DNA of 55,290 nucleotides from Methanobacteriota archaeon (GCA_011523185.1 WTHI01000092.1:3048-58337); one strand, 5' to 3'; numbered from the stretch's first letter, positions 5,188 through 50,510 are shown. Notes: generated by a model from the sequence alone, not told the origin. Made by a program: numbers and translations.

Positions 5188-5913
5188 CTACTCGTTAACG
5201 TCTTCACCCGAACTATAATTGAGTATTCCATCATCCAGCATATCTTCACGAATATCAGACTTTGAGCGACCGGTTTCCTTCGCCATTTTCTTCAATTTCT
5301 TGTTTACTCTGCGTTGTCCGCCAATCAATTCTCTAAGGCCATGGTAGATACGTAATATAGTCTCTAAGATTGATAACAAAATGAGGCTATTGAGGTAAGA
5401 TTGAGCCAATTCGTTTCGATTCTCGATTAATTCTTCGAATTCACTGAACTCTACAGAAATTGAACTGACCAAGAATACACCAAGAACCGCAAATGGCAAC
5501 ATCTTCGCGACATCTCGAGACAAATCCTCAGTCCAATAAGACAGGATTCGCACCGATCCTACAACGGCTGTGGCAAGCAATGCATTCCTTGCGTGATCAT
5601 CTCCATCAGCTAGGAGAGTTAGAATCACTGCCATAACAACGGTCCAGAAGCCGATGAGAACAGGTATCGCCAGAGCGTATTGGATTAACCAAACAGCAGT
5701 CCTAAAGAAGGCACGAATCTTTCCATCCATTGTCTGGTCATATTTGCTTAAGTCCAGATTCAGGATATCTCTTCTTGCTAGAAGCCTATAGAACATGAAG
5801 ACGAACCCAGAGTAGGCCGCGATAGCAATAATCGCCATCAGTGTTGGAAAGGACTCAGCGATGAAATCGTCAACCAAATTAGAGATATCATCTGCTGTTG
5901 GAGGGAATTCCAT
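5188..5913 (-). CDS. Hypothetical integral membrane protein
   Basis: 241-aa ORF with about 5 hydrophobic segments; no family motif recognised. Confidence 0.75.
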   Translation of the reverse strand: MEFPPTADDISNLVDDFIAESFPTLMAIIAIAAYSGFVFMFYRLLARRDILNLDLSKYDQTMDGKIRAFFRTAVWLIQYALAIPVLIGFWTVVMAVILTLLADGDDHARNALLATAVVGSVRILSYWTEDLSRDVAKMLPFAVLGVFLVSSISVEFSEFEELIENRNELAQSYLNSLILLSILETILRIYHGLRELIGGQRRVNKKLKKMAKETGRSKSDIREDMLDDGILNYSSGEDVNE

Positions 5914-5976
5914 TGGTTGGCCTTACCGGCTAGGAGTTCATGGTGATTTTGCAGGCATTATCTCTTCTGATGCAAA

Positions 5977-6522
5977 TTATCGACTACTAAACGGGCGAGC
6001 ACATTTTGGACATCTTTGAGGTAAAGAGACTCTTCTTCTCTGCCATGTGTGGCCACATTCTCCGCAAATCCAGGACTGTTCAGGAAGTTCCGCTAGAACT
6101 TCTTCTCGCATGCTTCTCAACACAGGTGATTCGGACAACTTTGGGGCCGGTGCTATTTCATTGACAAGTTCACTATGGCGGTTCCCATGATCGACTAAAC
6201 CTGCAGCGTGGAGTAATTCATGAACTAGAGTGTGTAGGTATAGTTTCTCATCATCTTTCAATCTTGGATGTAGGGCGATTGTAATCGGACCCGGTGAGCC
6301 TCTCAGTCTACGCCTGCGAAAAAGTTCGTGATGGTCAAATTCAAACCGAGTGTAACCTAAGCGATTATCCGAGGCATCAGCCCACTGCAAGGAAAGTTGC
6401 TTTGGCAGATGTCGCAGAAAAGGTGCATCATCACGAGTTAATCTAGATGATAACTCCTCCATGATACCCTCTGGTAAATTAGGGGTTCCATTTGGACTGG
6501 ACGAGACAGGCCCCTCACTCAT
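5977..6522 (-). CDS. SprT-like zinc metalloprotease with C-terminal zinc ribbon
   Basis: TLVHELLH (HExxH) plus downstream DHG; C-terminal CGECG...CPKC. Confidence 0.75.
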   Translation of the reverse strand: MSEGPVSSSPNGTPNLPEGIMEELSSRLTRDDAPFLRHLPKQLSLQWADASDNRLGYTRFEFDHHELFRRRRLRGSPGPITIALHPRLKDDEKLYLHTLVHELLHAAGLVDHGNRHSELVNEIAPAPKLSESPVLRSMREEVLAELPEQSWICGECGHTWQRRRVSLPQRCPKCARPFSSR

Positions 6523-22206: not shown

Positions 22207-24531
22207 TTGTTGAGGTCAAGAGCGCTTTCGGCAGCAATTTTCCTACTTCTCATTGGTACTTTTGCAGCAAGTTCTACCAGTGGCCAAGAGGTAGAAGAAT
22301 TTGGCCCTGGACTAGAACTCAGCATCCCTCAAAATCACAATATTTTCCTTCATGGAACAGAAGAGACCCCCGAACTTCGTAGAGACTGGCCAATTCTCAC
22401 AGGTATACCGGGAGGTTCGGCAAGTTTCTCCAAGACAGCAGGGGCGCCTGAAAATCTCGTCGATGTTCAAGGAATACCGATTGTAGAGGCCCTTTCCCTA
22501 AACGGCACAGTAACTGTTGAATTGTATGCTTCATTAGAGGCGAAATCTCCAGTTTGCAGGCAAACTAACGTTATTCCTGGTTCTCCCGCTGGTGCAACAA
22601 CTCAATTCTTTGTGACTCTAAGGTGGGGTTCTTTCACTCTTCTCAACGGTATGGCAACTAATGTTGTAACTATGGAAGAATCCTATACTCAATCTCATAT
22701 TTTCCAAGTTGAGGCACCTGTTGATGATGTAGACCTAGGGCCAGGAGACGTCCTATCTATGCAAATTTCAGTACAACACGATTGCGTTCAGCCGGGCTCA
22801 TTGTGGTGGGGGACTTATGATGCGAAAAGTGGAATCACATTTTCCGGTGACTTAATTGATCCACAATTAGAACAAGTCACTGATTCAAACAGAATAACAA
22901 GAATCGAGTTTACCCCTATTTCACCATGGGGCCCTTCGGATTTTTCACAACAAGTTATCGAAGTTGTTGGGCCGATGGATAGCTACGAATCTATGGTTCA
23001 TGGATTCGGTCAAGAGGATCAAAGATTGGAGCACTTTGAATCTCCTCATTCCTTTAGGGTCGGTGAAGCAAACAGGACTGTTCTTACTTGGTCTACATCA
23101 AAACCCTTGGAACCTGGATTGTACATGATAGATGGTTGCTTCAAACTTCAAGATCAAGATCCCGCTGAACCTTGTGATGTGATTGGTGTTCTGAAATTCA
23201 AAGTTGAGGAAGACCCTCAGGCTCTATTGAGCGGAACATGGGTCGCCATAATGATTCCACTTGGGGTAATTGCATGGCTCGGTGCATCAATGAGAGAGGC
23301 CATGTTGCCTCTTCCTGCTTATGCAGTAATTCTTGTTCTTGCCATTGCGAGTATTGGACCCGCCATCCACCTGCCAGATATAGATGCCAATGCACCACGT
23401 TCAGATGGCGCCGCCCCATCCTTCACTCTCTTGGAGCACGGGGGGGATGGTTCGGTATCTCTGTTTGAATTACTCTCAGATTCCGATGCTGTTGTTGTTG
23501 GATTGTATGTCCCCGGATCTGCTAATGCAAACCGTCAAGCAAATGATTTCCAAATGGCTGATGCACTGATAGATAGAGATATTTCATTTGTTCAAATTGC
23601 TACTGGCGAGGGGGTCAGAGCAGTCGATTTAGACGCTCATTCCGAGTTAATCAATGGTTCTTGGCCATTATTGATGGATAATGCTGATTCTAGTGTCGGT
23701 AAATCCTTCCCAAGTGGGGCAAGTGATGCTGTAATTATCATCGATGCAGCGGGTTTCATCACAGATTGGTCACCTGGAATTTACTCAAGTTCGGAGATTG
23801 CTGACGCGGTCGAAGAAGCAACGAAGGGCTCCGGGCATAGTGTGTTCGACCCACTTACCTTACTTTGGGGTACGGCCTTACTTCCTTTGTTCGTTCTAGC
23901 TATGCCGCGAGAAAGGAAATATGAGCAGCCGGATGAGGTTCTCCTCCCTGGCTCGGGAGTTTTGTTGACATTACTTGCGGCAGGTGTGGGCTTTTCCCTG
24001 TGGGCAATACCCATTTCCCTGATGGCAGCATTTGGCTTGGGTGCATGGTGGATATGGATTGAATTGATACTCGCCATTATTCTAACCTACCATGGTATAC
24101 GAACCTTAACCAGTGGCAGAATCCCAGAGATGGATTGGATTTCAAATAAGATTCATTCGAGACTACCAGATGAATATCGAGATTGGAGAAAGGCATCTTC
24201 ATTTAGCGACGACCTTCATTTAGGAATTTGGGTGGCCTGGTTGATTTGGCTGCGTACACCCGATTTGGTTGCTCAGGGTGTAGGCGCAGTAGCTCGCACC
24301 GGAGTTTTTGGAATAATTCTCTCTGTATTCATGTTACTAGGTCTAATCCTCGCAGCAGGTTTGACTGTAGTAATCGCTCGTGCTATAATCGGAATAACCG
24401 GTCCAATCCCTAGAACGCTTGGTAGTCTGAGTGTAGGAATTCGCCCAAGAGCATGGGGCCTAGCGAGTGCAATATTGGGGTCTTGGTTACTTATCAGTCT
24501 ACTAGTTGGTCCAGTATTGGGTAATTTTTGA
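22207..24531 (+). CDS. Large membrane protein: signal peptide, beta-rich extracellular region, redoxin-like domain lacking CxxC, multi-TM C-terminus
   Basis: 774-aa ORF (TTG start); GAAPSFTL...VVVGLYVPGSANANRQ...WPLLMD...VIIIDAAG resembles the AhpC/TSA-redoxin fold. Confidence 0.7.
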   Translation: MLRSRALSAAIFLLLIGTFAASSTSGQEVEEFGPGLELSIPQNHNIFLHGTEETPELRRDWPILTGIPGGSASFSKTAGAPENLVDVQGIPIVEALSLNGTVTVELYASLEAKSPVCRQTNVIPGSPAGATTQFFVTLRWGSFTLLNGMATNVVTMEESYTQSHIFQVEAPVDDVDLGPGDVLSMQISVQHDCVQPGSLWWGTYDAKSGITFSGDLIDPQLEQVTDSNRITRIEFTPISPWGPSDFSQQVIEVVGPMDSYESMVHGFGQEDQRLEHFESPHSFRVGEANRTVLTWSTSKPLEPGLYMIDGCFKLQDQDPAEPCDVIGVLKFKVEEDPQALLSGTWVAIMIPLGVIAWLGASMREAMLPLPAYAVILVLAIASIGPAIHLPDIDANAPRSDGAAPSFTLLEHGGDGSVSLFELLSDSDAVVVGLYVPGSANANRQANDFQMADALIDRDISFVQIATGEGVRAVDLDAHSELINGSWPLLMDNADSSVGKSFPSGASDAVIIIDAAGFITDWSPGIYSSSEIADAVEEATKGSGHSVFDPLTLLWGTALLPLFVLAMPRERKYEQPDEVLLPGSGVLLTLLAAGVGFSLWAIPISLMAAFGLGAWWIWIELILAIILTYHGIRTLTSGRIPEMDWISNKIHSRLPDEYRDWRKASSFSDDLHLGIWVAWLIWLRTPDLVAQGVGAVARTGVFGIILSVFMLLGLILAAGLTVVIARAIIGITGPIPRTLGSLSVGIRPRAWGLASAILGSWLLISLLVGPVLGNF

Positions 24532-28155: not shown

Positions 28156-28377
28156 TTGTCTGGAATCAGCATTCTCATTCAATTTGTTATTGGATTCACA
28201 ATTTTTTCCTATGGCTCTGGTAAGATTGATTCTAAGCTGGTCTTTGGTTTAGCAATTATTGCCGTAATTGGGTTATACATTGCCGGACCTCAGCCATTTC
28301 TTTTCGGAATGATTTTGGCTACAGGATGGTCTTTGCTAAACATGGGCGTTGAGAGGATTTTTCCAATCTTAGATTAG
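28156..28377 (+). CDS. Small hydrophobic membrane protein
   Basis: 73-aa ORF with TTG start after SD-like GGTGA; about 3 hydrophobic segments; fills the gap between genes. Confidence 0.55.
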   Translation: MSGISILIQFVIGFTIFSYGSGKIDSKLVFGLAIIAVIGLYIAGPQPFLFGMILATGWSLLNMGVERIFPILD

Positions 28378-29492
28378 TCATCAAATAACCCAAATGGCAA
28401 ATCAATCATACGACTTTCATCTTCATTGGATTCATTTTCGCGCTCATCGCTCTCTGTAAGATTAGTAGTGCGACGCCATGGTGGAAATTCTTCAGAGATT
28501 TCATCTGAACTCTCAGCATCTATCTTCGTTGATTTTTTCTCTTCGAGCAAATTTTGATTCAGGTTCTCAAGTTTCTCTTCTGGGTCGCGCATCCAATCGG
28601 GCATATCATGTGCTCCAGCGAGGACTGAAATGGTGGTAAATACGGCAACAGGAAGAACAGAAATAGCCACTAGGAAATCAATGATTGCTGCATCCGGAAT
28701 TTGGTCTGCTGGCATAATTGATTTCATTAAAACAGCCTCAAGTTGAACATTATGCCAGGCTTGGTAATCCACATCGAGTCTGTCTAGTGATAACTGTAGC
28801 ATTACCCTTGCAATAATCCAGAAAATAATGATAGGAAGAATCCAAGAAAATTTTGATATTCTTGCGAGAATTTTTCTAAACCAAGCGGCTATTCCAATTA
28901 GGTGGCTTGAGTACATAGGTTGTATTCTGAGGCCAAACCAAAGAGCGATAAAATAACCAACCATACCCAATTCAAATGCACGTTCGGGTTCAACAAACCT
29001 TTCAGGTATGCCCTCCATAATTAACAGAGGAATTGCAATTAATGCAACCTGAATTGGTATGGCTAGAATTTGTAATCCTCCATGGATTGAAAACAAATCA
29101 TATGTGTCGGTTCTACTACTAACCAAACGTGCCATTTGCCCATAGGGGCTTCTTTGCAAATTCAGTCTGGCTCTATCAATTAACTCAGGTGTATTGACGT
29201 TCCTTCTTAGGCCTAGAACCGTCAACCAACCTCCCCTGTCTGCAACGCTTGCCGGAGAATATGCACCTGCAATAAGGGCCAAAAGTAATGAAAGTGAACC
29301 GTACATTAATCCAGCAACAATTATCCAATCTAAAGCTGCCAAGTCGATATCAAATGAGAGTTGATCTCCTTCGTTATTTATCGACAATAGGTAGGTCAGT
29401 GAAAATCCAATAATCGGTGCAATTGTGACTTGTCCAAGAACAATGATGGCTAGAACAAAGCGTGGGAATAAGGGGTTTGCACGCCTAGCCAT
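28374..29492 (-). CDS. Hypothetical multi-TM membrane protein with acidic C-tail
   Basis: About 6 hydrophobic segments; likely start MARRANP at 29492. Confidence 0.75.
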   Translation of the reverse strand: MARRANPLFPRFVLAIIVLGQVTIAPIIGFSLTYLLSINNEGDQLSFDIDLAALDWIIVAGLMYGSLSLLLALIAGAYSPASVADRGGWLTVLGLRRNVNTPELIDRARLNLQRSPYGQMARLVSSRTDTYDLFSIHGGLQILAIPIQVALIAIPLLIMEGIPERFVEPERAFELGMVGYFIALWFGLRIQPMYSSHLIGIAAWFRKILARISKFSWILPIIIFWIIARVMLQLSLDRLDVDYQAWHNVQLEAVLMKSIMPADQIPDAAIIDFLVAISVLPVAVFTTISVLAGAHDMPDWMRDPEEKLENLNQNLLEEKKSTKIDAESSDEISEEFPPWRRTTNLTESDERENESNEDESRMIDLPFGLFDD

Positions 29493-29666
29493 ATAGCCGT
29501 CGCACCTTGAGGTCAACATAAGGCCTTCATAGATTGAACAACATTGCATACCCGTTCCTAAACACCTCATAGATTTGCCAAAAACCAGTCTGTTGCCGCC
29601 CGTAGGGCGGCGCACGCTGTGACCGAACCTTCATACCCGAACCGATATCGCAGAACTTTGTTATCC

Positions 29667-32600
29667 ATGCGTAATCTGTCACCTCTAGCCCTTTTTGCCA
29701 TTCTTATGGTGACGAGCCTTTCGCCATTGGCGTTTGGCCCGACACTGGAACATAATCCACCTCGAGAAGTGTCACCTAGAGCTTTGATTGATTTCGAAGT
29801 TTCTGACATCGAATTAGGTAACGGTTCATTGCAGGCACGTGAATGGGTAAACCCAGATGGCAGCATTGTTCAGTATGTGATGAGGGACGAATTGATTCAA
29901 ATTAATGTCACATTTACTCAGGCTGGAACATCCGGTCAACCGGCTAGTGCAATTGGAAAAATGCAAATTTGGCACCCTGTTGGAGTAATGGTAGCAGAAT
30001 GGTCAGTGAACATGACTCTATCCGGAGCCCAATCATTCCGAGCTGAATTTTATTGGACTCCCACTGCTGCTCAGAGTTACCTCGACGATGATGGATATCT
30101 GCTTGGAGGAATCATCCTCAGAGGAATTGTCGATGGTGGTCTAGCAGACGATAATTACGACAATAACCAATTCGATCGCTTGATGCCGGTTGCAATTTGG
30201 AACGATCCTATGGAAAACGGAATTTGTGGTGATGTTGATGGAGATGGCACTATTGATTGTCCAAATCAACTAAGCTACAACAACCCTACATGGGTAGGCG
30301 CTGGGTATGATACAGACGGCTCACTTTCTGATGATCCCGACTATTACGGCCACTGGAGAATGGAAAACGCATCAAGCGCCGTAGGCGAAAAACATTGGAG
30401 GGTATCTAGGCCAGGCGCTGATTATGCCAGCAACAGGATGGACAGACTTTGGTGGGGTTGGTTAACTCCGTTCGACTCCTGTGAAGACCCCGGTCATGGA
30501 CTAGGGAGCGGAACTTACGACCCTACAGTCTCAACAATTTATGCCAACTATTTCTGCCGAGCACGAATTCGTGGGTTCGATTACCTAAACTTGCAATTAG
30601 TAACTAATGCTTGGGGCAGTATGGGTCAAGGAGACACTGTTAGATTAGAGGCGGATGCAGGTAATGAGGAATTCTTCAACTATTCCGCAATGCCATTGTC
30701 ATCGACCTTTGGAAACTGGACCCAACTAGTTTGGAACATGACAGACGTTCACCCAACAGGCGATTACACATTGGCTTTCAGATTCGACTCAGATTCATCA
30801 GTTGCGACCCAAGGAATCCATCTCGATGGTTTCATTCTCTTTGGAATAGAAAGAGTTCCTGAATATACTCTCGACGTCGAATGTGACGATCCTCTTCCCA
30901 ATGCATACATTGTGATTCCTGCAGACCCCACTCCTCCTACATTGGGTTGTACTGTGAAAAACAATGGATACGTAGATATTACACTTCGAGTTTATACCGA
31001 CGTATCCAATCAATCTTGGATGTGGGATTTCCCACTAAGGATTGATTCTAACCATCCAACCGATTTCGACAACAACGTTGTAACAAAGAACATCAAGCCT
31101 TTGGAAACCATGGATTTGTGGGTCAATCTTACAATTCCTGATGGAGCAACGGTACAAGAGGTAGATTGGTATGTTCATATCGGTGACGGGATAACAAATT
31201 TTTCCAAATGGAGCATAAATCTTCCAGTTGACGTAACTGCTTCGTATTCCTCGTATCTTACCCAAAAGACATTGGAAAATCCTGCAATAACTCTACTTCC
31301 CGGAGAAACCGGTGATGTAGTCATGACTCTGAAGAATACAGGAAACCAAAGGGCGATATGGAATCTAGGAGGTACATTTGCCGACAATCGTTGGAGTGCA
31401 TCCAATCTTGTTTGGACGAATGAAACCGGAGTTGAGATAACAAGTATCGAGATGGACTTGAACGAAAAATTGGAATTGAATGCTCGCATTACCTCTCCAG
31501 AAGAGATAACTCCGGGAACATATGCAATAACGCTGATTGCTAGTGGTAGAGCTCCTGCAAATTTCCAAACTGAATGGACAATTCATGTGGAAGTTCCGGT
31601 AGATCATGACCTGAAACTAGTTCCACAAATTAGGGAAATGATGGCGCCTGCTGATGGGGCTTTGCGTTGGATAGAAATTCAACTGGTAAATGATGGTAAT
31701 TCCGAAGAGGCTTTTGATTTGTCAATCGCCGCTGATTGGCGCCTCGGATTGGAGATGAATGCTGAACAAACCCTCGGAATAGACCCATTCGGAGGCGATA
31801 CAAGCGTCCTGTTGATGTTCCCAATGCCGTATGGAATAGAAAACGAAACCTACCAAATTTGGGTTCATGCTACAAGCCAAATTAACCCAGAATACCAAAG
31901 AAGCGTACAACTTTTACTCACCGTTCCTGAAACATACCTCATCGAAGTGCCAGACCTAGATTTGACCAATGAGGTCTACCGTGCAGGTGATGATGCCAGA
32001 ACAATGCGATGGGAGGTTTGGAACAATGGAAACATGCCTGACAAGTTCACGGTTTCCTTCGATAAGAGCCATGAGGATATCACAGTCTTCGCTACTGGGC
32101 TAAACAATGGTAAGACAGATTGGATTCAACCAGGTTCATCAGTCAATCTGACCGTAAGTTATGCCTTTGACCAAGGTGCCGATGGCGATAGAACAGTCAC
32201 CTTGATTGCCGAAAGTCAACAAGCAGGAACAGTAGGGCAAACGGTTTCTGCAGAAGGTGAAGCGGACTTCAAGGTTGGACAAGTGGGTTGGCTTCTTGTC
32301 ACCCCTCCAGCAGGCATAGTGATTGAAGATAAGGGAGAAGTCACCTTAGAATTCGTAGTGATGAATCTAAACCCTTCTTCGGAGCAATTAATGCGAGCGG
32401 ATATCGACAGGACTTCTTACCCTGACTTATTCTTCAACGTCGAGGATGTACGCGTAAACAGTGAAGATCGAGATTTTGTTCTTCCCGCAAACGCAACAAA
32501 GATCGTCACAGTCACTGTTGACCTGAATCAGGAGAATCTTGATAATTTGGCAGAAAATACGATGACCTTCAATGTGGTTTTGACAGTCGACTCGGATATC

Positions 32601-33152
32601 GATAAAGTATCGGCATCAACAACAATACGACTTGTGAAAACAGTCCCAGTTGAAGATGGACCCGATGTAGGATTCATGGCCAAGTTGGCCGCTAACATCG
32701 TATTTGTGATTGCAGGTTTGGTAGCGATGATTGTAGTATCGGTAATGACATACAGAATTGTCAAAGAAGCGAGAGCACCATTAGAGGAGTATTCAAGCAT
32801 CGAGGATTATTCTTCGAGTTTTGTCAATCTTGGAGATGACAGTTCAGTTCCTGCAGCTCCAGATCTTCCGGCAGCAGACGAAGTAGCCAATTCGATGTAC
32901 GGTGGGTCCGCTGAGATATTTGAAAATCCGGCCGCAGAAATGCCACCTCCGCCACTTCCAACAGACGAAGAGCCTACTTCTTCTGAAATGCCTCTTACAG
33001 AAGAATCTGAACCAGAGGTTGAATCGTCTCAAGAAGCGGATTTACCTCCTGGCGTACCACCAATTCCAGAGGAAGGCTTACCTCATGGGTGGACCATGGA
33101 GCAGTGGGCCTATTATGGTGAAAAATGGTTAGAGCAAAACAAGGGCGAATAA
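29667..33152 (+). CDS. Large cell-surface protein with tandem Ig/CARDB-like beta repeats, C-terminal TM and Pro/acidic tail
   Basis: Signal peptide MRNLSPLALFAILMV; repeated (V/L)xNxG(N/Y) units (VKNNGY, LKNTGN, LVNDGN, VWNNGN); TM near the C-terminus; ends GLPHGWTMEQWAYYGEKWLE. Confidence 0.8.
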   Translation: MRNLSPLALFAILMVTSLSPLAFGPTLEHNPPREVSPRALIDFEVSDIELGNGSLQAREWVNPDGSIVQYVMRDELIQINVTFTQAGTSGQPASAIGKMQIWHPVGVMVAEWSVNMTLSGAQSFRAEFYWTPTAAQSYLDDDGYLLGGIILRGIVDGGLADDNYDNNQFDRLMPVAIWNDPMENGICGDVDGDGTIDCPNQLSYNNPTWVGAGYDTDGSLSDDPDYYGHWRMENASSAVGEKHWRVSRPGADYASNRMDRLWWGWLTPFDSCEDPGHGLGSGTYDPTVSTIYANYFCRARIRGFDYLNLQLVTNAWGSMGQGDTVRLEADAGNEEFFNYSAMPLSSTFGNWTQLVWNMTDVHPTGDYTLAFRFDSDSSVATQGIHLDGFILFGIERVPEYTLDVECDDPLPNAYIVIPADPTPPTLGCTVKNNGYVDITLRVYTDVSNQSWMWDFPLRIDSNHPTDFDNNVVTKNIKPLETMDLWVNLTIPDGATVQEVDWYVHIGDGITNFSKWSINLPVDVTASYSSYLTQKTLENPAITLLPGETGDVVMTLKNTGNQRAIWNLGGTFADNRWSASNLVWTNETGVEITSIEMDLNEKLELNARITSPEEITPGTYAITLIASGRAPANFQTEWTIHVEVPVDHDLKLVPQIREMMAPADGALRWIEIQLVNDGNSEEAFDLSIAADWRLGLEMNAEQTLGIDPFGGDTSVLLMFPMPYGIENETYQIWVHATSQINPEYQRSVQLLLTVPETYLIEVPDLDLTNEVYRAGDDARTMRWEVWNNGNMPDKFTVSFDKSHEDITVFATGLNNGKTDWIQPGSSVNLTVSYAFDQGADGDRTVTLIAESQQAGTVGQTVSAEGEADFKVGQVGWLLVTPPAGIVIEDKGEVTLEFVVMNLNPSSEQLMRADIDRTSYPDLFFNVEDVRVNSEDRDFVLPANATKIVTVTVDLNQENLDNLAENTMTFNVVLTVDSDIDKVSASTTIRLVKTVPVEDGPDVGFMAKLAANIVFVIAGLVAMIVVSVMTYRIVKEARAPLEEYSSIEDYSSSFVNLGDDSSVPAAPDLPAADEVANSMYGGSAEIFENPAAEMPPPPLPTDEEPTSSEMPLTEESEPEVESSQEADLPPGVPPIPEEGLPHGWTMEQWAYYGEKWLEQNKGE

Positions 33153-34874: not shown

Positions 34875-34969
34875 GGTCCAATACGACCGTAGGTCGTAAC
34901 CCTAGTTTACATCAAGTTCAAGAATCGCTTTCCGCTGGAGTGACCATAAGTCGGGGCTGAGTTAGGAAG

Positions 34970-36943
34970 ATGGCTATCGTCAGCGTCTATATCGAAGAGG
35001 GTTGTATCACCTGTGATGCCTGTGAAGAGACACTTCCCGAAGTATTCCATGTGACCGACGATACCTGTTACATCAAGGCCGATGTCAGACTTGATGGCGG
35101 CTATGATAGGAATGAAGGTAAAGCGGGTCTAAAACCCGATACCATCTCACAATTTCAGGACGACATTCTTGATGCAGCCGACGGCTGTCCTGTCGATGTA
35201 ATCATCGTAGTTGAAGGCGGAGAAGCAGAGGCAACTGTCGAGGAAGAAGCTCCTGTTGCGGTAGTAGAGGTCGTACCTGAGCCGGCGGTCGAAGAGACTG
35301 TTGAGGTGGCCGGAGATGACCTTGAACAACTTCTGAGTGCTGGTGATCGAAGTCTAGCTATTCTATTCGGTTCTCAGTCAGGAAACTCCGAAGCCCTGGC
35401 TGCTAAGTTTGCAAAGCAGGCATCAGACTATGGTCTTGAGGGTACAGTCTACGACATGGATGGTTTTGACTTCGCTTCTCTTTCCGCTATGAAGCGGGTT
35501 CTGATCATCTGCTCAACTTGGGGTGAAGGGGAGATGCCAGACAATGCCGAAGACCTTTGGCAGACCGCTCAGAAATCGGCCGCTGGGTCTCTCAATGGAG
35601 TTCATTACTCAGTCCTAGCACTAGGAGATACAAGCTACGAATTATTCTGCGAATCTGGAAAGGATTGGGATGAGCAGTTAGAGAAATTAGGGGCAACCCG
35701 TCTTGTAGATCGGGTTGATTGTGATGTTGATTACGAATCAATGGCTGCCGCTTGGGCAGTTGACTCATTGGCAGCCATGGCGGCTGTCGACGGCACCGGT
35801 GTATTCCACGAAGATATGGTGGAAGCAATCAAAGAATACGTTGCAGGTGGAGATGAAGGCGCCGATGGAGAAGATGGATTTACTGTCCCCGATATTTCCG
35901 CAGAGTCGATTCAAGCAGAGATTAGCATCTTCCGATATGACCCAGAGGCCGCAACAACCGGATCTGACACATGGGTCTGTGCGATGCCAGGTCACTTGAG
36001 TCTCTTAGAGGCGCTCAGAACCATCAAGAGCACTCACGATGGCAGCCTTTCATTCCGCGATGGTGCATCCGATGACTCAACCACTGCGATTTGTGTAAAT
36101 GGTCGTTTAGTGCTACCTGGATTAGTTCGGCTAGACGCGGTAGCACCAACTCGTGACGGCACACTTAGACTGCGAATTGACCCGTTACCAGGATTCGAGG
36201 TAATTCGAGATTTGGTAGTCGACCACTGGTCTATGGAGCGTCGAAGAGAATCTACCGCACCGTGGATGATTGCGGCAACCCGAGAAGGGGCTGTAACCAT
36301 GCAAGGAAACATTGGGTTGATGGAGCCTAATGTTGCAACCGCTTTACACTCAATTACTGACTTTGGTAGTTCAGCCTTATTGCAAGCATCTTCCGACGCA
36401 GTCCCACATGCAAATGGTTACCTCGGGCCTGCAGTTTTGGCATCGGTTTGGGCAAGGAGAAATGACCCTAGATCCTCTGCTTCTTCTGTCAGTGAGCTTG
36501 ATGAAATATTGGCTAGCTCGAATGGAATCAAAGCTGAAACAGACCTTGCAAGTATCCGTAGGCAGAATGGTTCTGGATTAGTCGTCTCAGAAGCCTTGTT
36601 AGACGCAAAAACACATGTCTTGGAGCGCGACGCATTCAATGGCCGCCACGGTAAGCATGTTTGGTGGTACACCTGGACTCTCAAGTCAAGTGGAAAGGTC
36701 AATGACACCGTGTTATATCGTCAGGTTTTGGGTCCAATTGGACTATTGGGTAATCTGACATCTGGCGTGACCGCTAGAATGATGACTGGATTTAGCCGTA
36801 CGGGTGGCGACATGATTACTGATATGCTAGCTTTCATCGCTCCACCTGCAGGTATTGGAAAGATGCCACGTCAATTCAATTCCTCTGTGGATAATCACCA
36901 TGAAGTAGTGGCGATATTCAACGAATTAGATGGTAGGTTCTGA
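34970..36943 (+). CDS. Fusion protein: monocluster ferredoxin + flavodoxin + degenerate SdhB/FrdB-like domain
   Basis: CITCDAC...CPVDVI; flavodoxin FGSQSGNSE, STWGEGEMPDNA, ALGDTSYELFC; SdhB-like IFRYDP, SLSFR, IDPLPGFEVIRDLVVD, YLGPAVL without the Fe-S Cys motifs. Confidence 0.82.
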   Translation: MAIVSVYIEEGCITCDACEETLPEVFHVTDDTCYIKADVRLDGGYDRNEGKAGLKPDTISQFQDDILDAADGCPVDVIIVVEGGEAEATVEEEAPVAVVEVVPEPAVEETVEVAGDDLEQLLSAGDRSLAILFGSQSGNSEALAAKFAKQASDYGLEGTVYDMDGFDFASLSAMKRVLIICSTWGEGEMPDNAEDLWQTAQKSAAGSLNGVHYSVLALGDTSYELFCESGKDWDEQLEKLGATRLVDRVDCDVDYESMAAAWAVDSLAAMAAVDGTGVFHEDMVEAIKEYVAGGDEGADGEDGFTVPDISAESIQAEISIFRYDPEAATTGSDTWVCAMPGHLSLLEALRTIKSTHDGSLSFRDGASDDSTTAICVNGRLVLPGLVRLDAVAPTRDGTLRLRIDPLPGFEVIRDLVVDHWSMERRRESTAPWMIAATREGAVTMQGNIGLMEPNVATALHSITDFGSSALLQASSDAVPHANGYLGPAVLASVWARRNDPRSSASSVSELDEILASSNGIKAETDLASIRRQNGSGLVVSEALLDAKTHVLERDAFNGRHGKHVWWYTWTLKSSGKVNDTVLYRQVLGPIGLLGNLTSGVTARMMTGFSRTGGDMITDMLAFIAPPAGIGKMPRQFNSSVDNHHEVVAIFNELDGRF

Positions 36944-36952
36944 GGTGAGAAT

Positions 36953-37813
36953 GTGGCAATAAAATACGCATATCATCCCGGAAACGTATCTCACAGCAGT
37001 TCTCCAGAAGTCGCTGTGACTATGGAGTCTTTCGCCCGAGCAATGGGGATTACTCTAGTCCCTCTGCCAGGTGCAACAAGTTGTGGAGCAGGAATTGTTC
37101 GGCAAGCAAATCGCAGACTGCAACTTACTCTCAATGCTCGAACTTTTGCCATGGCAGAAGCGGAGGGTCTGAACATCCTTACTCCCTGCGCCGCAACCGC
37201 TGGAAATCTACAAGAGGACTTGATGGCATTACAATCTGACCAAATTCTCATGCAAGAAGTCAATGAGACTCTAGAGAATACCTGTGGATTAACTATGACT
37301 GGTGAGGTAGAGATTCACCATATTTTACACGCTTTAGTCGATGAAATCGGTCTTGATAAACTAGAGGAGAAGGTCAAGAATCCAATCGATTTTACCGCTG
37401 CAGGATATTACGGTCCAAATATACAGCAAGAGGGTGCTTGTGGCGGCGACGACGTATACGATCCAAATTATCTTGAGCAGGTAATTTCGACTTTGGGAGG
37501 TACTCCTGTAAGTTGGGAAGCAAGGACCCAAAGTGTGGGTGTACCAGGTCTCTTTGGAGAAGAACCTACGGTAATGAAGCAGGCTGCTGAGGCCCTATCC
37601 GAAGCAAAAGCAGAGGGTGCAGACCTAATTGTAAGCGCATGCAACCTATCCCAAGCAGTACTCGATATTTACCAAGGTAAAGCCGGTAGAAATACAGGAC
37701 TTTCAACAAATATTCCTGTGATTCATCTTTGTGAGATGCTTTCGTTTGCACTTGGATGTCACAACAAGAGATTGGCTCTTTTGAGGACTAGAATCGCAGT
37801 AATCGGCGATTGA
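36953..37813 (+). CDS. HdrB/SdhE-like CCG-domain protein, degenerate
   Basis: KYAYHPG, GATSCGAG, LNARTFAMAE, ILTPCA, YYG, GADLIVSACNLSQ..LD..Q, IPVIHL..L..ALG; SD GAGGTGA upstream. Confidence 0.82.
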   Translation: MAIKYAYHPGNVSHSSSPEVAVTMESFARAMGITLVPLPGATSCGAGIVRQANRRLQLTLNARTFAMAEAEGLNILTPCAATAGNLQEDLMALQSDQILMQEVNETLENTCGLTMTGEVEIHHILHALVDEIGLDKLEEKVKNPIDFTAAGYYGPNIQQEGACGGDDVYDPNYLEQVISTLGGTPVSWEARTQSVGVPGLFGEEPTVMKQAAEALSEAKAEGADLIVSACNLSQAVLDIYQGKAGRNTGLSTNIPVIHLCEMLSFALGCHNKRLALLRTRIAVIGD

Positions 37814-49853: not shown

Positions 49854-50510
49854 ATGGATTACGATAGCATGACAGTCGCTGAACTCAAGGATTTACTACG
49901 CGATGCGGGAATGCCGGTTTCAGGTAAGAAGGCGGACTTAATCGCCAGATTACAAGAGGCCGCAGACGTTCCTGAAGAATCAGAAGAAGTAGAGGAAATG
50001 GTCGAAGAAGAAATGGATATCGAGGAAGACGAGTTCGAATCCGACGATTTCTTCGAAGACGAATGGGATGACTTCCATACAGCTCGTCAAAAGCCAGTAC
50101 TCGACGATGCAACAAAGGAAGCATTAGCAACCCGTGCTGCTCAAAAGAAGAAAACTCCAACCTTCAGAAGGCAGGAATGGTTCCGCTACAAGCGCCTTTC
50201 CCGTACTGGCTGGAAGAAACCTAGAGGTGATGATTCCAGCCAAAGGAAGAACCGCAAGTATCGTTCTGCTCTAGTCCGAGTAGGGCACGGAAAGATAGCT
50301 GCAGCACGAGGACTACACCCCTCTGGATTTGAAGAGGTTCTAGTCAACAAGAGTAGCGATCTCGAAGGTTTAGACCCGGAGACGCAAGCAGTCCGAATCG
50401 CGAAAACAGTAGGAAACCGAAAGCGATCCGCAATTCACGATAGAGCAGATGATTTGGGCCTTAGGGTTCTCAATCGCCGCCGCATCTCGCGGAAGGGGGA
50501 CTTGCGATGA
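49854..50510 (+). CDS. rpl32e: 50S ribosomal protein L32e (eL32) with N-terminal SAP domain
   Basis: FRRQEWFRYKRL, WKKPRG, RGLHPSG; N-terminal MTVAELKDLLRDAGMPVSGKKADLIARL. Confidence 0.95.
   Translation: MDYDSMTVAELKDLLRDAGMPVSGKKADLIARLQEAADVPEESEEVEEMVEEEMDIEEDEFESDDFFEDEWDDFHTARQKPVLDDATKEALATRAAQKKKTPTFRRQEWFRYKRLSRTGWKKPRGDDSSQRKNRKYRSALVRVGHGKIAAARGLHPSGFEEVLVNKSSDLEGLDPETQAVRIAKTVGNRKRSAIHDRADDLGLRVLNRRRISRKGDLR

Follow-up and report, generated by a model that had tools for sequence, protein, structure and literature searches.

Can the scaffold of an iron-sulfur (Fe-S) enzyme outlive the cysteines that bind its clusters and still serve electron transfer? The question is raised by two adjacent genes in a 55,290-nt stretch of DNA, hereafter the window (WTHI01000092.1:3048-58337), from a Methanobacteriota archaeon (GCA_011523185.1). 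Gene 1 (34970-36943, plus strand, ATG start) encodes a 657-aa protein composed of a ferredoxin, a linker, a flavodoxin, a second linker and a cluster-less type E SdhB-like domain; it is defined by its open reading frame (ORF), by Pfam and NCBIfam matches and by its recovery in 151/151 genomes. Gene 2 (36953-37813, plus strand, GTG start) encodes a 286-aa protein of the HdrB/SdhE fold with two degenerate CCG domains, recognized by its ORF, by CCG, HdrB and SdhE models, and by AlphaFold2 (AF2) and Foldseek. Together they appear to encode a conserved heterodimer specific to the order Poseidoniales, its binding predicted by modelling. Its role is taken, at slightly better than even confidence, to be that of a lineage-specific ferredoxin/flavodoxin-linked reductase or adaptor in which tethered carriers have replaced the Fe-S wire.

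Poseidoniales (Marine Group II) are abundant, uncultured archaea of the ocean, and to our knowledge their energy metabolism is known from genomes only. The pair would clearly exemplify an Fe-S enzyme scaffold that is conserved and works without its clusters, and it presents, within one fusion protein, an unusually well-resolved series of repeated, convergent replacements of ferredoxin by flavodoxin. Ferredoxin-type versus flavodoxin-type and CCG-intact versus CCG-lost alleles could serve as a testable marker of iron adaptation in ocean metagenomes, and finding the substrate would supply a missing piece of electron transfer in a major marine lineage. Existing annotations of the proteins read “flavodoxin domain-containing”, “heterodisulfide reductase-related” or “hypothetical”; no description of the pair was found in the literature searched, whose supplementary gene tables might list it.

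An SdhB-Like Domain Without Cluster Ligands

The last ~345 residues of gene 1 are homologous to type E-style SdhB relatives over the full length of the latter, C-terminal extension included. They comprise an N-terminal domain of the 2Fe-2S type that lacks its four cysteines (residues 313-422; 35906-36235, plus strand), placed by Fer2_3, alignments and Foldseek matches to FrdB/SdhB, and a C-terminal domain without its seven cysteines (residues 423-657; 36236-36940, plus strand), supported by alignments, the predicted interface and invariant motifs. The latter ends in a type E-style extension: beyond residue ~520 there is no novel sequence, only the extension typical of ~319-aa SdhB relatives with an extra insertion of ~25 residues (GFSRTGG...PPAGIG). 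The motifs GRHGKHVWW, GFTRTG, PPAGIGK and HHEVV are invariant, and the SdhB scaffold motifs are kept.

Domain content, overall sequence and fold are those of SdhB/FrdB. Fer2_3 matches residues 318-422 (E 4e-10; 40.1 bits against a Pfam cut-off of 27), the orthologue profile matches solved SdhB (E 1e-16 over positions 12-200), and Foldseek aligns gene 1 to FrdB/SdhB chains (E 1e-10); the whole gene 1 model superposes poorly on SdhB (TMt ~0.5, root-mean-square deviation [rmsd] ~10 Å). The NCBIfam SdhB models span residues 314-520 with scores under their curated cut-offs (TIGR00384, 53.5 bits against 88; equivalog SdhB models, 27-53 bits against 228-600). Missing are the ligands of the [2Fe-2S], [4Fe-4S] and third clusters, and also the company of SdhA, the pair adjoining a thermosome gene and Hef instead.

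To trace the cysteines, 68 orthologues were aligned with four Cys-bearing SdhB relatives 312-319 aa long; the sdhA-sdhB-sdhE operon of a Thermoplasmatota genome (L078) supplied one of these and a representative library the other three. The relatives share 11 conserved cysteine columns, none of which the window protein occupies; 66 of the 68 orthologues have none either, and the other two have one stray Cys each. Judged from these sequences, the loss is ancestral, the residues being gone from every lineage sampled. A preliminary description of the window had called all three cluster motifs of the SdhB-like domain erased, which is right for the 11 cysteines; the residue-for-residue replacement that it gave for the third cluster is approximate, as the region aligns with gaps. 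The ORF positions it gave are exact for both genes, and all the strings that it quoted for gene 1 (CITCDAC...GCPVD, GSQSGNSE, STWGEGEMP, FRYDP, SLSFRDGASDDSTTAI, PLPGFEVIRDLVVD, TDFGSSALLQASS, YLGPA, GIKAETDLASIRRQN) occur in the translation.

A Partner Whose Cysteine Loss Came Later

Gene 2 has the two-CCG-domain fold of HdrB and SdhE. Pfam detects the CCG domain in two stretches (35 bits against a cut-off of 20.6), the NCBIfam HdrB and SdhE models run from end to end (E 3e-35 and 4e-34), and the orthologue profile matches solved HdrB (E 6e-55). The AF2 model, with a predicted local distance difference test (pLDDT) of 89.8, superposes on HdrB of four methanogen complexes (Foldseek to 8rvy_B, E 7e-19, TM 0.86, 26% identity; rmsd 2.6 Å over 277 columns); identity to 5odc_B is also 26%. 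The curated family scores are not reached, with 121.8 bits against 345 for TIGR03288 and 118.4 against 500 for SdhE of methylmenaquinol:fumarate reductase (MFR). Profile searches for SdhB and CCG homology had been suggested as a check, and Fer2_3, CCG, Flavodoxin_1 and the SdhB, HdrB and SdhE models do all match.

The two CXnCCGXmCXXC motifs, with ten cysteines, are not preserved: gene 2 retains three, C44, C79 and C230. The view that its ligands had been replaced (PGN, TSCG, PCAAT, YYGP, QSVG and CNLS, strings all present in the translation) is correct for the seven that are gone and needs amending for these three. The only cysteines invariant in 54 aligned gene 2 orthologues are C79 (37187-37189) and C230 (37640-37642), one in each former CxxC.

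The two motifs have had different histories. The C-terminal one is down to a single Cys in 68/68 gene 2 orthologues. The N-terminal one has all five cysteines in 12/68 and lacks them in 56/68; the CCG-intact rows represent eight of the 22 genera (g2, g3, g7 and g10 of the window's family, g14 of a second, and g19, g20 and g22 of a third) and one metagenome-assembled genome (MAG; locus L101). All loci read from g4, g12, g13 and g11 (3, 3, 1 and 2, respectively) have lost the motif. The SdhB-like part and gene 2 were joined, without the motif columns, for a quick IQ-TREE tree computed under no mixture model; on it, the N-terminal loss requires two state changes, a number forced by the starred branches, one of them in the window's lineage. 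The two CCG-lost clades differ in their residual residues (NSCCT versus NSDCS/NGDCA). Because the N-terminal motif is intact in some rows and changed twice on the tree, gene 2 lost its cysteines after gene 1 did, on two occasions and not in every lineage. The sequences indicate that basal genera still encode the N-terminal motif and that the ancestor had one cluster motif. Cysteine loss had been described as coordinated across the pair; this does not hold, the 11 SdhB cysteines being lost everywhere and the N-terminal CCG set being complete in those 12 rows.

Interchangeable Carrier Modules

The N-terminal part of gene 1 carries the redox modules that its core lacks. Residues 1-83 (34970-35218, plus strand) form a single-cluster ferredoxin whose CxxCxxC...CP signature implies one [4Fe-4S] cluster. 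The Fer4_13 model matches residues 9-79 (31.6 bits against a Pfam cut-off of 24.5), 41 rows show no variation at C12, C15, C18, C73 and P74, and pLDDT is 78-89; score and the four Cys ligands alike place the module in this family. Relatives of the ferredoxin module, at 52-69% identity over the best segment and some of them in tandem, occur in Holophagaceae, Solibacteraceae, Planctomycetota and Kuenenia MAGs (L103-L180). An acidic flexible linker rich in E, A, V and P follows (residues 84-123; 35219-35338, plus strand; pLDDT < 50 at 84-115), differing in sequence and length among orthologues.

The next module (residues 124-292; 35339-35845, plus strand) is a flavodoxin domain of the CysJ/cytochrome P450 reductase (CPR) type, identified by Flavodoxin_1, the cysJ model, VIA-align and its motifs. 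Flavodoxin_1 matches residues 131-256 (E 1.4e-32; 113 bits against a Pfam cut-off of 25) and the NCBIfam cysJ model matches as well (E 8e-42). Residues 124-293 superpose on the flavin mononucleotide (FMN) domains of nitric oxide synthase (NOS), NDOR1, CysJ and CPR with VIA-align Z 21-23, rmsd 1.3-2.4 Å and 26-34% identity. The FMN-binding residues G134, S135, Q136, G138, N139, S182-G187, G219, D220 and Y223 are invariant across the same 41 rows. Score, fold and motifs make it a diflavin-reductase-type FMN domain, with FMN binding itself predicted. A second flexible linker (residues 293-312; 35846-35905, plus strand; pLDDT < 50 at 293-309) joins it to the core.

This arrangement is one of several. 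Among the 68 loci read, 46 genes are ferredoxin-flavodoxin, 16 flavodoxin-flavodoxin, five flavodoxin only (four genuine, one cut at a contig end) and one ferredoxin-ferredoxin, proportions biased by sampling, as L017-L076 are the best genome matches and L081-L100 were picked for unsampled genera and unusual frame lengths. The double ferredoxin belongs to L101, a syntenic Poseidoniales orthologue with thermosome and Hef neighbours and no flavodoxin. A 446-aa relative, P0251, on a 3.0-Mb contig, has one ferredoxin and no flavodoxin. The preliminary description had proposed the flavodoxin as a possible substitute for the lost clusters; L101 and P0251 show that it is not an obligatory one. In the wider, unbiased sample, the best match begins after query residue 80, and so lacks a ferredoxin match, in ~41 of the 151 genomes, a few of which are contig-truncated; they include all ten genomes of g4, all seven of g12, all three of g13 and both of g11.

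A careful tree of 83 flavodoxin domains gives the N-terminal flavodoxin copy at least four origins, each putting a duplicated flavodoxin in place of a ferredoxin, the number again being forced by starred branches; one lies within the third family and another is a recent tandem duplicate in g11. Both copies retain all three FMN motifs in 16/16 flavodoxin-flavodoxin rows. The modules, one or two small low-potential carriers per core, are therefore interchangeable, with ferredoxin-flavodoxin, flavodoxin-flavodoxin, flavodoxin and ferredoxin-ferredoxin sets on one core in one synteny. Because of this, and because the N-terminal CCG motif of gene 2 is either kept or lost, the implied iron per heterodimer spans 12 atoms (one row), 8 (10 rows), 4 (37 rows) and 0 (20 rows) among the 68, a count that assumes one [4Fe-4S] per intact motif.

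A Conserved Two-Gene Unit

The pair is present in 151/151 Poseidoniales genomes drawn evenly across the order, including 58/58 of high quality and all 22 genera, with identity dropping to 43% and a single in-frame stop in one genome (G147). Searches with the SdhB-like part alone gave strong matches in 21/21 and 42/42 genomes of the two large families and none in the eight genomes of the sister family of the same class. Elsewhere among 301 genomes of the phylum, 26 genomes match only weakly, at the level of canonical SdhB (21-34% identity, best E 3e-12). Among 1.84 billion representatives, a profile search returned 27 matches at E <= 1e-30, all of them family members, full-length or fragments; the next matches are Cys-bearing SdhB proteins. 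On this sequence survey, the pair is universal in and specific to the order.

Selection on both genes is strongly purifying. The ratio of nonsynonymous to synonymous substitution (dN/dS) is 0.03-0.16 for the SdhB-like part, 0.04-0.19 for the carrier part and 0.03-0.09 for gene 2, as calculated by the Nei-Gojobori method for pairs with dS < 1.2, more divergent pairs being saturated and excluded. Both genes, and the junction between them, are spanned at 95-100% likeness by contigs from four metatranscriptome runs of three studies, evidence that can neither prove a single transcript nor rank expression. Carried-over DNA is an unlikely source of these contigs, since the convergent neighbour Hef is nearly bare (depth 0-7 in most bins). 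Full-length ORFs, purifying selection and RNA-contig cover thus indicate a conserved scaffold and not decay, as had been proposed; the check on dN/dS suggested with that proposal came out below 1 throughout, and neutral decay is not seen.

Gene 2 lies directly downstream of gene 1 in all 68 loci read. In the window the two are separated by a 9-nt gap, and a Shine-Dalgarno-like GAGGTGA (36942-36948, plus strand) overlaps the TGA stop of gene 1 and ends 4 nt before the GTG of gene 2. Upstream, the 95-nt spacer before gene 1 holds a perfect 6-bp inverted repeat (ACGACC-GTA-GGTCGT, 34883-34897), 9 nt past the thermosome stop, and is nevertheless crossed by RNA-library contigs. In one locus (L059, G019:C27), the two genes form one 997-aa frame from which the last ~26 residues of gene 1 are absent. 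A search of the protein collection found no longer protein containing gene 2 at E <= 1e-10, which is weak evidence, and a frameshift-like fragment (P0254) comes from the same lineage. The fused frame may be an assembly error and, as the search found no long fused protein, is not taken as support for subunit binding.

A Predicted Complex

The gene 1 model consists of confident, separate domains joined by disorder, the two low-pLDDT stretches falling in the linkers. When gene 1 residues 300-657 and gene 2 were modelled together, each from a custom alignment, the pair reached an ipSAE of 0.91, whereas the best of three controls scored 0.00; the mark used is attained by 58/80 solved complexes and 2/110 mismatched pairs. 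Partner pLDDT is at least 91 in the complex runs, and contacts agree to at least 98%. Modelling of the pair without further partners had been suggested as a check, and binding is indeed predicted, although the high ipSAE may partly reflect likeness to solved HdrBC.

In the predicted interface, gene 1 contributes its C-terminal extension and its former cluster loops, packed against the two former CCG loops of gene 2. The gene 1 residues involved are 476-484, 521-534, 544-613 and 640-657; most of the surface comes from its C-terminal domain and extension (residues 423-657).

Relation to Known Electron-Transfer Systems

Lacking the cofactor features of SdhB, HdrB/SdhE and TfrB and keeping their folds, the pair is best described as a variant of the Sdh/Hdr kind that is a member of none. 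Its gene order, with the SdhB-type gene first and the two-CCG-domain gene second, is that of SdhB and SdhE in the type E form of succinate:quinone reductase (Sulfolobus) and in MFR of Campylobacterota, and is also found in the Thermoplasmatota operon of L078. SdhE is described as having two CXnCCGXmCXXC motifs whose ligands serve a [4Fe-4S] cluster and a zinc site, and as thought to be a monotopic anchor (PMC2754724). By contrast, the pair has no adjacent sdhA, lacks the 11 SdhB cysteines and bears a fused ferredoxin and flavodoxin in front; unlike SdhE, gene 2 is without the C-terminal CCG motif in every orthologue and, in the majority, without the N-terminal one as well.

Methanogen HdrB is the best structural and sequence match of gene 2, and its CCG loops, like those of gene 2 in the predicted complex, face the ferredoxin-like half of the partner. 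The ten cysteines of HdrB are said, in the literature on 5ODC, to hold two noncubane [4Fe-4S] clusters that reduce CoM-S-S-CoB. Gene 2 differs in keeping three of the ten, its partner is SdhB-like and cluster-less rather than HdrC, there is no HdrA, and the window's organism comes from a lineage of aerobic heterotrophs, no methanogen. Thiol:fumarate reductase TfrB has the same two modules, SdhB-like and two CCG, in the same order, yet it is one Cys-rich polypeptide with TfrA for a partner; the window instead divides the modules between two genes, has an SdhB part devoid of cysteines and offers no TfrA nearby, and the TfrB model reaches 27.1 bits (E 1.6e-6) on gene 1 against a cut-off of 385, which leaves gene 1 outside that family.

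In its fold and its disordered flanking linkers, the gene 1 flavodoxin resembles the FMN domains of diflavin reductases (CysJ, CPR, NOS reductase). The FMN domain of CPR shuttles between donor and acceptor, and by analogy that of gene 1, on its disordered linkers, fits a swinging shuttle domain. Unlike diflavin reductases, gene 1 has no FAD/NADPH (FNR-like) domain, and its flavodoxin has a ferredoxin module and a cluster-less core as neighbours.

The repeated N-terminal swap recalls the substitution of ferredoxin by flavodoxin under iron scarcity (isiB/fldA versus petF), as does the occurrence of ferredoxin at the inner position in L101; the isiB/petF contrast is described for the open ocean (PMC13096325). 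Unlike the regulated choice between free genes, the swap is fixed here in the structure of a fusion gene, lineage by lineage.

A further relation stands at the level of a lead. An ESM Atlas feature search placed Fer2_3, DUF5644 and HdrB-like_C clusters near the SdhB-like part of gene 1 (scores 0.75-0.88), and the best non-Hdr structural match of gene 2 is 3kwl (Foldseek E 3.6e-10, TMq 0.72). A table in one source lists this Campylobacterota structure under “unknown function” (PMC3397514). For the window proteins, neither Pfam (to E <= 10) nor a PDB sequence search bore out the DUF5644/HdrB-like_C link, which remains a lead.

Candidate Partners in the Genome

In the window, the pair follows a large Pfam-less protein and a thermosome gene and is followed by Hef on the other strand and a ribosomal protein cluster; the thermosome-pair-Hef order is kept in L101, a distant orthologue. 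Canonical paralogues elsewhere in the genome had been expected, and they exist. Contig C60 carries a complex II operon (L006, L009) encoding a 309-aa multi-helix, sdhC-like membrane protein, SdhA (616 aa) and a Cys-complete SdhB (256 aa), with nothing resembling sdhD, sdhE or sdhF downstream of sdhB. C56:8909-11692 encodes a 928-aa HdrD-like membrane protein in which CxxCxxCxxxCP occurs twice and both CCG domains are complete; a 112-aa two-cluster ferredoxin-like ORF follows (C56:8509-8844). A Cys-intact 527-aa HdrD/EtfD-like membrane protein, cut by the contig end, is encoded at C123:3-1583. Both HdrD-like proteins are possible partners or functional analogues. The genome also encodes a NadB-like flavoprotein (C11), one 2-oxoacid:ferredoxin oxidoreductase (OFOR; C81) and several free-standing ferredoxin candidates; gene 1 is its only Flavodoxin_1 and its only Fer4_13 match.

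Possible Roles of the Pair

Under the favoured reading of a carrier-linked reductase or adaptor, the pair would derive from a duplicated type E sdhB-sdhE (TfrB/Hdr-like) pair whose internal Fe-S wire was swapped for tethered, swinging carriers. Low-potential donors, such as the genome's OFOR, may load these carriers with electrons, whose destination would be the HdrB-like cleft, an acceptor of the disulfide or quinone type, or an enzyme that docks on the core as a partner. In lineages without the CCG cluster, the final redox centre would be FMN. Iron economy in the surface ocean could then account both for the swapping of Fe-S modules for FMN ones and for the loss of the CCG motif. Of the iron-sparing complex proposed in the preliminary description, the sparing of iron gains from the recurrent ferredoxin-to-flavodoxin swaps and the two CCG losses; the idea of a required flavodoxin has to be given up.

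Several observations weigh against this reading. The reductase role is itself a prediction from sequence. The core of the window's lineage has no recognizable cofactor site, so the pair is possibly a mere docking adaptor. Iron economy leans on two loss events and the module swaps, and an apparent link to small genomes is confined to one family. No partner gene lies within the operon among the window ORFs, neither protein has a hydrophobic or transmembrane segment (maximum KD19 1.4; amphipathic moments modest), and the fused frame of L059 is the single natural gene 1-gene 2 fusion, without backing from the protein collection. Since free-standing ferredoxin candidates exist, the fused carriers are not the only ones of the genome, and since the assembly is 81% complete, the standing of gene 1 as its only flavodoxin is provisional.

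A pure adaptor is the main rival, and a rather doubtful one. The core would have no chemistry of its own and would dock through its SdhB- and HdrB-type surfaces to hold the carriers beside a redox enzyme, with SdhA (C60), the NadB-like protein (C11), OFOR (C81) and the HdrD-like proteins (C56, C123) as candidates. Such a role would suit a protein pair that has no SdhB cysteines in 66/68 rows and has lost most CCG cysteines in 56/68, that keeps its SdhB scaffold motifs, that has candidate partners in the genome and that exists in minimal forms with a single tethered carrier. However, none of the 68 loci read links the pair to a gene for a candidate partner, SdhA already has a Cys-complete SdhB and a membrane anchor in its own operon, and the N-terminal CCG motif kept in basal genera argues for a core that is itself redox-active; an adaptor role also fails to account for the invariance of C79 and C230 in 54 rows.

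A bolder version of the favoured reading, itself rather doubtful, takes up C79 and C230: the pair would be the first known iron-free descendant of Sdh/Hdr, whole genera (g4, g12, g13 and g11) having exchanged each ancestral Fe-S centre for tethered FMN domains. These would deliver electrons to the C79/C230 pair or to a ligand site in the HdrB-like cleft, and the complex would act on a disulfide or quinone as the central ferredoxin/flavodoxin-oxidizing reductase of Marine Group II. If this were true, the series from 12 to 0 iron atoms in living genomes would amount to a natural experiment in which flavins replace an Fe-S wire under iron scarcity.

A role outside electron transfer seems improbable. 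The pair could sense or regulate the redox state of ferredoxin/flavodoxin, with the carriers as redox-sensing inputs, or be an assembly or chaperone factor; pseudoenzymes often turn into regulators, and the pair sits in a housekeeping region between the thermosome gene and Hef, a position conserved in the distant orthologue. But Pfam and NCBIfam detect no DNA-binding or signalling domain, the repeated like-for-like exchange of ferredoxin and flavodoxin is what would be expected of working electron carriers, and the ancestral CCG cluster motif points to catalysis. The ligand losses in the window, complete in gene 1 and seven of ten in gene 2, could also suggest a decaying sdhB-sdhE duplicate or a gene-calling artefact. 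Conservation and selection refute this, leaving it next to no probability: frames are intact in 151/151 genomes apart from the single stop in G147, dN/dS is well below 1, many non-cysteine residues are invariant (D476, E523 and D525 of gene 1 and H123 and S194 of gene 2 among them), RNA contigs cover both genes, and the proteins have a confident fold and a predicted interface.

Other Features of the Window

In two runs that belong to different studies (X3, X5), RNA contigs connect 37817 with 38672 and leave out 854 nt of the 3' part of Hef, 14 other letters standing in place of the skipped stretch; they probably stem from a related strain whose Hef differs in its C-terminus or gene end. Upstream of the thermosome gene, a 1177-aa ORF (29619-33152), without a Pfam match, combines a signal-like segment at the N-terminus with a hydrophobic stretch at the C-terminus and an acidic/proline tail, and is possibly a surface-layer protein; its counterpart in L101 (1128 aa) occupies the same place. 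ORFs of 774, 413, 241 and 181 aa (22207-24531, 28374-29615, 5188-6522) have no Pfam match at E <= 1e-5. Ribosomal protein L32e, encoded at 49854-50510, carries an N-terminal SAP domain (PF02037, E 2.4e-15).

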